Translations under genes and position numbers: made by a program
The notes under the pieces: generated by a model
What the model was told of the DNA's origin: nothing
What the model saw: the letters and a program-made list of their open reading frames with translations, nothing else
Database searches by the model: none
Part shown: positions 103-49,029 of the stretch, piece by piece
How positions within the stretch are numbered: the first letter of the stretch is position 1
Layout: every line of letters starts with the position of its first letter
Assembly (NCBI RefSeq): GCF_964194155.1
Contig: NC_135907.1
Span: 21,266,001 to 21,330,000 of the forward strand
Direction of reading: 5' to 3'
DNA length: 64,000 nt
Source of the DNA: Cetorhinus maximus
Lineage: Eukaryota

Positions 103-228
103 ATGAGGGTCAGTGTTCCCCAAGGAGAGCTTGTGCAGATCCAGCAGACTCTGGTTCACATCCTTCTCCATTTGCAGAGCTCTCTGCATTGCCTCCAGAC
201 CATTGCCCCACTCATCCTTCTCTGGTTT
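103..228 (-). CDS. Ferritin locus A, exon 3 ([42 protein letters not shown]); exon 4 lies left of the window
   Basis: 126-nt exon with a tttcag acceptor and gtaagc donor; translates to ferritin helix C with the E107 equivalent (QMEK). Confidence 0.95.
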
Positions 229-1375
229 CTGAAAGGGGAAGAGAAGTCTTGTTAGTGTTATTGGGAGTGGAAAGTCCAAGGGGCGTTACAATTTAGAAGT
301 AACAGAAGTTTGTCTGTGCACACGAAGAACAGTGTTATGACACAGTTTGTAAAGGCAGAGTTACTTAAAGTCCCAGAGGAAAACTTGAAACTAATAAACA
401 TACCAATTGAAAATATAGGTAGGGATGCAGCTCTGAAGTCAGAAATGGACCAAGCCACCAGAGGTTTTTATACAAAATTAAAAATGTCTACAAATTACCA
501 CCATAACCTTTAAACAAATCCTCAAATTAACCACTTCTAGGTAAATCTAGATCCAGGCAACAATAACCCATAGACTTAGACATCAGGCAAAGCACATTCT
601 ATTTTACTAATTCAAAAAGCCTTTCAATTTGGTTGCTTCAGAGTTGGAGGCTTACAGGCAGCTTAGATCTCATATGCCTCTGACCCACAAAACTGTATAT
701 ATCCAGCCTTCCCTTTGAATGTAAATTCTCATTGTATCACCAGGCCCTTTGAACTCCATCTCTTCTAACAAAACTTTCATAGTACCAATTTTATTAGTAA
801 TAAACAGATTGCTTGGTGTCTCCTAGCTAGGTGCAAGATTTCACCTCGTCTTTGAATGGTTTATTCAACAAAATGGAATTGTACTCTTTACCTTATTGTT
901 TAAGGTCTCAAAACTACTGTACATCAAAGCACCCAGACTAGCTGGCTTTAATCCAATTGACAGACCCTACTACAAGTCCAATGAACACAAGATCAGGTCA
1001 TTGACTCTACTTTGCAATTTTTAGCCAAAAACTTCCATTCCCAATTATTAGTTCTGGTTTAAATCCTCAAGAGGACTTCACCCATCTATGCTTACATCTT
1101 TGGTCCACATTCAACACCAGTTTCCTATGCAAATACCACAAAGCCTGGGTTAAGAATTTAGTGCAAAGAAAATAGTTCTGAATATCCAGATTTGGATCAG
1201 GCCATTCAAAGATCAACATCACACCAATTCATCCTGTAACTGTCCACACCTTGCACCAACAATTTTAAAGCATTAATCTCAATGGATTGAGAATTTATGG
1301 TGTAACAGCAAGACAATAAACTATTTGAAATAACAAGGAACTTCACAGAAGATGCCTTCCAAGTTAGAATCCAAC

Positions 1376-1522
1376 CTTGACATCCTCCAGGATGACCCGG
1401 CCTCCACGTTTATTCTGGAATTTCATCAGTTTCTCAGCGTGTTCCCGTTCCTCATGCGACTGCTCCTTGAAGAACTCAGCAAAGTGACGCAGGGCAACAT
1501 CATCCCGGTTAAAGTAAAAGGA
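1376..1522 (-). CDS. Ferritin locus A, exon 2 ([49 protein letters not shown])
   Basis: 147-nt exon, ctgcag acceptor, GTTGGA donor; ferroxidase motif EEREH intact. Confidence 0.95.
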
Positions 1523-1599
1523 CTGCAGGGAGACACAAAAACCCAAATATCATCCATGGCTAACAAAATAAAAAGCAGCCTCATGGTAGGCAAGTTACC

Positions 1600-2430
1600 C
1601 ATTCTCCACCTCGATATCTTCTTTTCAATTAAGGGGCTTACGGTTAGTCATTTGGTAGTACAAATCCATCCTGCAACATAGTGGCTGCCCTGCTTGCTGT
1701 ATATTACACAAACTTATGGGACTAAGGCTGCCCCTTTCAGTCCTGAAGAGTGGCCACTATCACATTAGCCTAGAAGGGCAAGGTATCTCAAATTTGATCA
1801 ACACGTGAAGTTAGCCATTTCATGCTGCTACTGCACAATAGCAACAAGTGGTGTTCACCACTAACAGTGCTGCCATCAAGATGTACTGCTGTGGTATAAG
1901 AATTTCAGAGTAATATTAGGTATTTAGGCCATGTTCCAAAGACTGGCAGATCATATCAAACAGTACATCCTTCAACTCTTTGCAACAGGCAAGGTACCGA
2001 CTATACCCAACCAGCCCATGCTGGCAAAACTCATGTAATCCTGCAATTGTTGTCCAGTCTTGTGTGCGCTAAGAATTACACTGACAATTTAAGATTAAGG
2101 CACTCGGTGCGGTTCACATACACATGTTAGAAGTTACATATCAATATACAGGACTCTTCTTTGCAGGCAGAAATAATATGCACACATTAAAACAGACATT
2201 CTCTGGTACATTCCCCAGGGCATTGCCCTAAGTTCAAGCCAGGAAGGGTCACTCCAACGAGTTTGGTTGTTAACAGTCAGTGCATTCTCCATGGCAACAC
2301 TTCTGCCAGAGTCCACTTGCCAGCCAATTAGCACACTCTTCTCATGAAGTATAAATTGTTGTTCCTTTTACATTAGGTATTGTCACAAATTTTCCTGATA
2401 AGTGCAAGACAAAAAGTTTCAAAAGGGCTT
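1600..2430 (+). mobile_element. Decayed Penelope-like element (family 2), 3' part with degraded hammerhead-like end
   Basis: Shares blocks (gctaagaattacact; ccatggcaac...ccaattagc; gtataaattgttg; ctgataagtgcaagac) with copies at 22192-22624 and 54800-55500. Boundaries approximate. Confidence 0.55.
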
Positions 2431-3129
2431 ACAGTTTAAGATAAAAAACTGTAGTGAAACTGAAGCCATTCCAATTAGTGTTTCTTCTGAATACATTCAA
2501 AGTTCCTGTATTCAGGAGAATCAATTTATCAATCAAAAAAAATTGAGGAATTTTTTGATTAAAGTTTCATTTCTGCACTCAACATATTTAAATGATCAGT
2601 AAGACATGCTTTCCTTTCCTACACCCTCCCCCTCCATGGACACCTGAATATCAGTGATAGAAAGAAAAAAAAACAAAACAATTTTACACATTGAGCAGGT
2701 TAATATTATGAATATTGAATGTTAAGAATCCAGTTGGAGGTAAGAAACATAACAGGATTCACTCATTTCTAAAAAAGTCAGGGGGGTGGGGAAGAAGGAG
2801 AAAGAAAATGATAGCTGACCACAACTAGTCAGCTAATGTTTCACTAGCTAGTCACCTGATTACATTTAATTGTTTCCATTTAAGTTGGAAAGTTGACCAA
2901 GTTTAGGAATCTTCAAAATGATTCATCTATTAGGAAACAGGGACCCTGGGAGTTAATTTTAGATGTAAACACTTCAGGGATAGGGTACAGCTATTAAAGA
3001 ACAAGGAACACACTCCTGTCATGGGGAAGGCTACATTTCAAAACCAATTCATTGACTCAGGGAAATGCTACCTACTCAGGATGTCACAGTCTTAACTTTA
3101 AAACAGGACCCCCACAAAATCCAACTCAC

Positions 3130-3231
3130 CATGGAGAGGTAAACATAGGAGGAATAGAGCTCCAGGTTGATCTGCTTGTTAACATCATCCTCACAGTCCG
3201 TGTGATAGTTCTGACGCACTTGGGAGGCCAT
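3130..3231 (-). CDS. Ferritin locus A, exon 1 ([34 protein letters not shown])
   Basis: ATG at 3231 (aagATGG context), 102 nt, gtgagt donor; E27 and Y34 equivalents present. Confidence 0.95.
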
Positions 3232-3292
3232 CTTAACCTACAAAGTTGGTTTAAACAAAACAAACTAAGACCAAACAACTACCAAACTCTTG

Positions 3293-3350
3293 TATTTATA
3301 CTACTGGGACATACATCCCTGCATTCCAACAGGCAATGACATCACCAATG
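3293..3350 (-). promoter_or_regulatory. Locus A core promoter: TATAAATA, with CRE-like TGACATCA and CCAAT nearby
   Basis: TATAAATA on the - strand at 3293-3300, ~62 nt upstream of the ATG; TGACATCA at 3337-3344. Confidence 0.6.
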
Positions 3351-47890: not shown

Positions 47891-47962
47891 CTGGGGAAAG
47901 AGAGAGAGAGAGAGAGATAGAGATAGATAAAGTGAATCTGGAACTAAGCACAAGAAAACATA

Positions 47963-48058
47963 AACAACTCCCCCCCTTTTATACAACCTCGAGATTCCTC
48001 CCCCCCTTTTATACAACCTCGAGATTCCTCCCCCCACTTTTATCCAACCTCGAGATTC
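47963..48058. repeat. ~30-nt tandem repeat x3 in locus E intron 1
   Basis: Unit ccccccttttatacaacctcgagattcctc. Confidence 0.85.
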
Positions 48059-48455
48059 TGCTATGAAAAGCAAGGCTGCTGGAAATTAAACCATTGCAGT
48101 TACAACTGGTGGGAACCGCAGAACAAAAAAGAAATGATCCGCTCACCAGCTAACTGATCATTAACAGGGTTTTACAATATATAAAAAAAAACAAGCCAAG
48201 CGTTTTAAAGCTGAGATACAGCTTCCCCTTGTTGCACTCCAGCATTACACAGGCTGGTGTTGAACGGGCGGGGGGAAGGAAGTGAAATATCACGACAACA
48301 AAAAAGGTCACAACTCAACCCAACCCAACTCAACTCAACAGGGTTTCTTGCAAGATGGGGTTTAACCTAGAGAATGACCACCCCCCCCACCCAAAAACCA
48401 TCCCCCTGGGATTGCACCCCCCCAGAAACGCTTGTATTAGTTTGCTTCGCCTTAC

Positions 48456-48557
48456 CATGGACATGTAGACATAAGAAGCGTATAGCTCCATGTTAATCTG
48501 GCGGTTGATCGCCGCTTCGCAATCCTGGTGGTAATTCTGGCGGATTTGAGAAGTCAT
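48456..48557 (-). CDS. Ferritin locus E, exon 1 ([34 protein letters not shown]); canonical 176-aa middle/heavy-type ferritin
   Basis: aagATG start, 102 nt, gtaagg donor; all ferroxidase ligands present across the exons. Confidence 0.96.
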
Positions 48558-48717
48558 CTTGATCTGCAGCGATTGTCCAAAAAATAAGCAACAAAAAAAA
48601 AAGTTGGGGGGGGAAGAGAAGAAGAAAAGTTGGGCAAGTTGACAAAATAAAGTGTTAAAATGGCTTTTTTTTTTAAAATAGGAGGGGGGGGGATTTAAAA
48701 ATACGAAGTTTGGGTTC

Positions 48718-48749
48718 TATTCCGTTCAAACACTGTTGAAGCAAGAATA
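48718..48749 (-). promoter_or_regulatory. Iron-responsive element (IRE) in the 5' UTR of locus E
   Basis: UAUUCU-UGC-UUCAA-CAGUGU-UUGAA-C-GGAAUA: ferritin-type UGC/C bulge, 5-bp upper stem, CAGUGU loop. Confidence 0.96.
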
Positions 48750-48787
48750 CAACCCGGATTCTGTGCTACTGTCCAGCCAGCGCCTGG

Positions 48788-48847
48788 TATTTATCGAGCG
48801 AGTCGCCGCCCACAAGCTTGTTACCGCCTCCCTGAGATGATTCAGCA
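48788..48847 (-). promoter_or_regulatory. Locus E core promoter: TATA-like GATAAATA and ARE-like ATGATTCAGCA
   Basis: GATAAATA (-) at 48788-48795, ~40 nt upstream of the IRE; RTGAYnnnGCA match at 48837-48847 on +. Confidence 0.6.
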
Positions 48848-49029
48848 CAAAACTGGTTAACTCTTGGAGTGCTGGGCTTGTGACTCGCTGCCTTTTCCCG
48901 GACGAACCCACTGAGTGGGGTCAGGGATGAGTTTCTTACACAACGTCAGCTTGTTGGCATTGCGCCTTTTGTAAGAGGGGGAGCCCACTGATCGCCAGCC
49001 AATTGGTTTTATTGGCAGTTAAGAGATGT

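Follow-up and report, generated by a model that had tools for sequence, protein, structure and literature searches.

We analyzed a 64,000-nucleotide window of Cetorhinus maximus DNA (contig NC_135907.1, positions 21,266,001 to 21,330,000; coordinates below count from the first letter of this window) that contains five ferritin loci, referred to here as A to E. Our data make it probable that gene D encodes a ferritin with the full set of ferroxidase residues whose conserved, arginine-rich and acid-poor leader imports the protein into mitochondria, and that D has this role independently of FTMT, the mammalian mitochondrial ferritin gene. We also lean toward the view that elasmobranchs evolved a mitochondrial ferritin of their own before the shark-ray split, when a presequence was added to an intron-containing tandem duplicate at the middle/light chain (M/L) locus. 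Such an event would add a second origin in vertebrates, reached by another route than that of the intronless mammalian gene, and it would stand alongside a shark-wide expansion that produced dozens of iron-independent ferritin genes. If so, ferritin was recruited to mitochondria repeatedly and convergently in vertebrates, in elasmobranchs by an intron-containing single-copy gene.

The leader of gene D

We directly observed the gene structure of D, its leader, sole start codon and conserved catalytic residues, the lack of an iron-responsive element (IRE), a clade of orthologs and a position within a tandem array. The features of D are as follows.

33582..44343, plus strand: gene D, four exons (33582-33857, 40372-40518, 40628-40753, 44188-44343), 234 amino acids (aa), full ferroxidase site
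33582..33755, plus strand: D leader, 58 codons, seven arginines and no acidic residues, predicted mitochondrial presequence
33268..33581, plus strand: CpG-rich region upstream of D, no TATA match

The first-pass annotation of this window had assigned D a 60-aa leader. The leader is real, conserved and presequence-like, but its length is 58 aa, since the sole in-frame methionine before helix A lies at 33582. One database protein (P0122) is exactly identical to D including the leader, and two Cetorhinus maximus database proteins match the exon-1 frame at 100%. No IRE was found at D by an Rfam scan or a hairpin pattern scan. Upstream of D, a YY1-like AANATGGCG motif is clustered; the window contains eight copies against 0.76 expected, five of which fall within 33268-33432, and two of these five sit in a 26-bp tandem repeat. 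A separate tandem repeat of approximately 750 bp (33899-34650) occupies the start of D intron 1.

We found the leader in all 20 D-type proteins (one per species, sharks and rays), with lengths of 22-58 aa. None of these proteins has a methionine at the usual ferritin start, and the leaders open with a shared start motif conserved at one position. Across the 939 leader residues there are 143 arginines, 6 lysines and 4 acidic residues (for Rhinoraja, counting began at the second methionine), and 16 of the 20 leaders are free of acidic residues, while mature D is 16% acidic. Among other ferritin matches with N-terminal extensions, used as a control, one of 26 was acid-free. Acidic residues are thus nearly excluded across the shark-ray split, at 4 of 939 against approximately 3.7% expected from shuffled sequences. 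In addition, 17 of 20 leaders have an arginine pair no more than about 10 residues from the usual start. Mitochondrial presequences are basic, acid-poor and amphipathic, and the D leaders agree with this on composition only, as the hydrophobic moment (0.43-0.77) does not separate them from controls. A homolog search with the leader by itself returned just two models from the same species, the orthologs surfacing with the full protein, and an ESM Atlas search with D residues 1-70 was uninformative (best score 0.78). Taken together, the D leader is conserved and, judged from its sequence, looks like an organelle presequence.

Orthologs, locus and comparison with FTMT

D orthologs are present in 20 elasmobranch species, both sharks and rays, seven of which were added by cluster look-ups. 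Each of the 14 aligned D-type rows has all six ferroxidase residues (Glu24, Glu58, Glu59, His62, Glu104 and Gln138, numbered as in an excerpt of PMC4117605) and Tyr31. In our tree, which contained no FTMT sequence, 11 D rows from sharks and rays form a clade of their own (100/100), and the clade of heavy (H) chains excludes D at 100/95. No chimaera or bony-vertebrate D was among the best 120 of 2130 matches, which is weak evidence of absence. D and copies of the A-type family (described below) lie on contigs of equal listed length in C. plagiosum, Heptranchias, S. canicula, Mustelus, Rhincodon and Stegostoma. The NCBI models of D (P0122 plus ortholog models in 19 more species) are called 'ferritin heavy chain-like', and none of the names listed for the 20 D cluster members says mitochondrial. 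Two further database proteins (P0121 and P0140) are annotated D isoforms from two species that are without all or part of exon 3 and would lose much of helix C. In full-text literature, with subscription journals outside the coverage, we found no description of shark ferritin arrays or of a shark mitochondrial ferritin.

The descent of mammalian FTMT from the H gene offers a first point of comparison. According to excerpts of two papers, mammalian FtMt has a long cleaved targeting sequence, a working ferroxidase center, no IRE and no introns (PMC4118045, PMC11719527). D resembles it in its long N-terminal leader, full ferroxidase site and lack of an IRE, and differs in retaining the three usual introns, in being part of a tandem array that does not include the H gene, and in forming its own shark-and-ray clade. 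Because leader composition, catalytic residues and the missing IRE match while gene structure differs, we read D as distinct from FTMT but probably similar to FtMt in the way it works. Import and cleavage are shown for the mammalian protein and expected by analogy for D. The leader would carry D into mitochondria and be cleaved near the conserved arginine pair, after which the cage would assemble in the matrix, oxidizing and storing iron free of IRE control. The excerpt of PMC11719527 describes mitochondrial ferritin from mammals, flies and plants. Like the putative shark protein, those of Drosophila and plants lie outside mammals; unlike it, they are not from vertebrates.

We propose that D arose by tandem duplication within an M/L-linked array. 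Approximately 16 kb right of the window lies gene F (contig C30, the contig of the window, 21345846-21365410, L022-L024), which reads Val58, Gln104 and Ser138. Its exons 3 and 4 match the bullfrog light (L) chain first and exon 2 matches it second (PDB 1RCC/1RCD/1RCI), and Gln104 and Ser138 are common to F and bullfrog L, so that F shares with bullfrog L a loss of ferroxidase residues. No IRE was found near F, even at E values up to 5. Judging from these exon matches, the tree having no L row, F is an amphibian-L-like ferritin. Contig C30 also bears glycogen synthase, TIP49 and Bcl-2 family genes, 1.3-4.6 Mb away from the array; these genes neighbor FTL in human. Teleost M and tetrapod L have been published as orthologous (excerpt of PMC4117605). 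Teleost and amphibian M and tetrapod L share the four-exon structure with the shark genes. A four-exon gene on another contig (C9) groups with vertebrate H (100/95) and carries its own IRE. Since F flanks the cluster and the H gene lies elsewhere, the H/L split is inherited, not reinvented in the array, which the first-pass annotation had raised as a possibility.

Transcript evidence and alternative readings

Contigs assembled from run X4 (a related species, guessed to be RNA; one of four runs examined) span 33559-33857 including the ATG with no indels, and none of their 12 listed differences from the window creates a stop or an acidic residue. A low-depth X4 contig also crosses the D exon-1 donor, and therefore unspliced RNA or DNA is present in this run. 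In run X6 (a related species, organism C), an 893-nucleotide (nt) contig covers 33857-33607 and continues at 27723-27407 on the minus strand with GT/AG signals. The continuation was matched by length, depth and junction letters, and the last third of the contig is unplaced.

27407..27723, minus strand: exon of a spliced transcript antisense to D, running from the GT donor at 33607 to a pyrimidine-AG acceptor (one contig, related species)

This transcript heads toward gene C and may reflect a shared bidirectional C/D promoter or a long non-coding RNA. The Leucoraja D ortholog is also listed from Logan assemblies, which suggests a spliced D transcript.

Several observations weigh against a mitochondrial D of M/L origin. 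Targeting is read solely from the composition of the leaders, and the 20 leaders, being related, are not independent observations. The Cetorhinus leader has no proximal arginine pair and contains a 12-residue hydrophobic stretch resembling a signal peptide. GC-rich shuffles of the leader average 9.1 arginines and are acid-free in 9.5% of cases. No listed sequencing run is on record as RNA, and the organism C contig exits the leader at 33607 as an antisense splice form, leaving the ATG uncovered. The best PDB matches of D are human H chains, and approximately unbiased (AU) tests on a 35-row subset rejected neither D with mammalian H (p 0.054) nor D with the H clade (p 0.145). Lastly, the marker genes on C30 are distant rather than adjacent and are assigned only at the family level.

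The shuffles bear on whether the leader targets the protein at all. It is unlikely, in our assessment, that the leader is a tolerated, non-targeting extension that arose once the standard start codon had disappeared from a GC-rich CpG island, with D remaining cytosolic. GC-rich shuffles stay open 46% of the time and are arginine-rich, and a length range of 22-58 aa would suit a tolerated extension. Because arginine enrichment is expected from the shuffles, the signal lies not in arginine but in the exclusion of acids across species, and it is this near-exclusion, maintained on both sides of the shark-ray split together with a start motif at one conserved position, that argues against a neutral extension and for a targeting leader.

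The hydrophobic stretch raises the question of secretion, in which the leader would be a signal peptide followed by a propeptide and D a serum or egg ferritin. An uncharged stretch of 12-18 residues with a hydropathy score (KD9) of 2.2-2.5 lies within the first 20 residues in Cetorhinus, Heptranchias, Mustelus and Pristis. In Stegostoma, Rhincodon, Narcine and Leucoraja this core reaches only 1.2-1.4 (overall range 1.17-2.52), yet the basic charge and lack of acids persist. A hydrophobic core that is not conserved counts against a signal peptide, and we regard a secreted D as improbable.

The H-chain matches and the unrejected AU topologies would fit a mitochondrial D that is H-derived and shares its ancestry with mammalian FTMT instead of coming from the M/L array. 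We give this very little credence. D has three introns and belongs to the C30 array, the H gene is found on C9, D falls outside the H clade, and FTMT is intronless (excerpt of PMC11719527). As the AU tests do not reject H ancestry, our case for a D independent of FTMT is built on introns and location. A single M-type gene expanding into five functionally distinct subunits and thereby recreating H, L and FTMT, as first proposed for this window, is most improbable, and as a five-member scheme it is contradicted. In its favor, C, D and E have diverged, remain intact and differ among themselves in site residues and regulation. Against it, B is fragmentary, A represents just one of 36 copies, a chimaera sequence already falls in the A lineage (97/94), and there are separate genes of the H clade and of L-like type. 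The five-way account is partly wrong, but D is a credible variant.

The surrounding ferritin array

The window forms the right-hand margin of a 290-kb array on C30 (21.077-21.365 Mb) with 40 ferritin loci and fragments, where a cluster of five had been described. The census combined a Pfam search across the 3.99-Gb genome with 464 kb of examined sequence, and its grouping of fragments may over-split the 40 loci. A strict rule sorted the 40 into 18 complete, intact loci, 14 fragments and 8 flagged four-exon models; the leader (D) and a divergent exon 4 (F) are the sole reasons why D and F carry a flag. Loci in the window were defined by tblastn and splice-site inspection. In each of A, C, D and E, exons 1 to 4 measure 102, 147, 126 and approximately 153 nt, with AG/GT boundaries at matching codon positions and D exon 1 extended at its 5' end. 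Thus the identical intron positions ascribed to five loci are found in A, C, D and E and not in B. These four have the four exons, three introns and open frame of a vertebrate ferritin gene (PF00210), with exon 4 of A outside the window.

17454..26182, minus strand: gene C, four intact exons (26182-26081, 22840-22694, 21141-21016, 17606-17454), no IRE
46912..48557, minus strand: gene E, four intact exons (48557-48456, 47890-47744, 47623-47498, 47067-46912), full ferroxidase site
48752-48717, minus strand: IRE (Rfam RF00037) in the 5' untranslated region (UTR) of E, 42.6 bits
48837..48847, plus strand: antioxidant-responsive element (ARE)-type consensus match upstream of E, a motif by itself at chance level
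103..3231, minus strand: gene A, exons 1-3 (3231-3130, 1522-1376, 228-103), full ferroxidase site, no IRE
3295..3300, minus strand: TATA box of A, 69 nt upstream of the ATG
7019..9117, minus strand: locus B, exon 3 (9117-8992) and 29 codons of exon 4
6493..7023, minus strand: tandem repeat of 24/54-nt units, in place of the 3' half of B exon 4

C, D and E are pairwise 61-72% identical, and nonsynonymous divergence (dN) is far below synonymous divergence (dS). Their sequences indicate that they are old, distinct lineages. The altered ferroxidase site and missing IRE reported for C hold; the six site residues are E, K, E, Q, E and Q (E58K, H62Q), which departs from the catalytic H/M-type set. 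A TATA box lies 136 nt upstream of the C ATG, and a read-assembly contig covers exon 4 and the 3' UTR (17359-17604). The gene is intact, and weak ferroxidase activity is predicted from its residues. Its place in the tree is unassigned, and deep branches are weak.

E carries the only IRE that the Rfam scan returned in the window, and it was described as canonical. The IRE and full ferroxidase site stand; the ARE-type motif is present but taken alone does not exceed chance, with 13 matches in the window against 9.3 expected. E probably acts as an iron-regulated, housekeeping-type gene. Its location fits the M/L locus, and like salmon M it combines a full site with an IRE. Salmon has five isoforms, all with IREs, whereas in the shark an IRE-type hairpin occurs in 2 of 50 loci having exon 1 (hairpin pattern scan) and one family accounts for 36 copies within a single array. 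In the protein phylogeny, D forms its own clade outside H, A belongs to a many-copy clade, and the E clade (100/96) attaches to H with 89/84, a node among the weak deep branches that does not assign E to M.

The full site, TATA box and lack of an IRE noted earlier for A are all present, and its exon 4 is intact immediately left of the window. A is nonetheless not a single specialized paralog. The array contains 36 A-type loci, comprising 16 intact, 6 flawed and 14 fragmentary copies. Over the 153 non-independent pairs among 18 intact copies (16 in the array and 2 on C2), dN averages 0.043 and dS 0.079, a ratio of 0.54, and 14 of the 18 retain the full ferroxidase site. Judged from these sequences, the family appears to undergo birth-and-death evolution under relaxed constraint. 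It is shark-wide, with 90%-identity clusters of 127, 138 and 180 members and many copies per species, and its clade takes in the chimaera sequence cited above. We place A and B in this shark-wide birth-and-death expansion, whose copies would be TATA-driven and lack an IRE, and the family raises a second question, that of high-dosage, transcription-controlled iron storage.

Locus B is an A-family relic. Its exon 3 is 96.8% identical at the nucleotide level to A-type copies, and neither exon 1 nor exon 2 was found between A and C by tblastn and blastn. The repeat once read as encoding the B C-terminus carries three in-frame stops, the first at 6766. We therefore ruled out B as a functional gene, given the missing exons, truncated exon 4 and stops.

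Intron-containing A-type copies also occur on other contigs (C2:191.117-191.149 Mb, where they make up a further array, and C15:39.60-39.62 Mb), and this suggests segmental transposition of the array. Intronless ferritin copies are scattered over further contigs (L061-L070, L080); 8 of the 11 fetched are A-type and 3 are H-type, and the A-type retrocopies suggest germline expression of this family.

The rest of the window beyond D is old array. A Pfam scan of 117 of 427 unmasked flanking open reading frames gave only two retroelement matches and one weak match to a ubiquitin-conjugating enzyme, below the Pfam cut-off, approximately 45 kb left of the array (L037:6502-6780). A second array on C30 (15.845-15.911 Mb; L050-L056, L077) holds ferritins that we call G-type, with orthologs in other sharks. 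No IRE was found in this array, the three intact copies carry Lys59, and it contains an inverted, near-identical pair.

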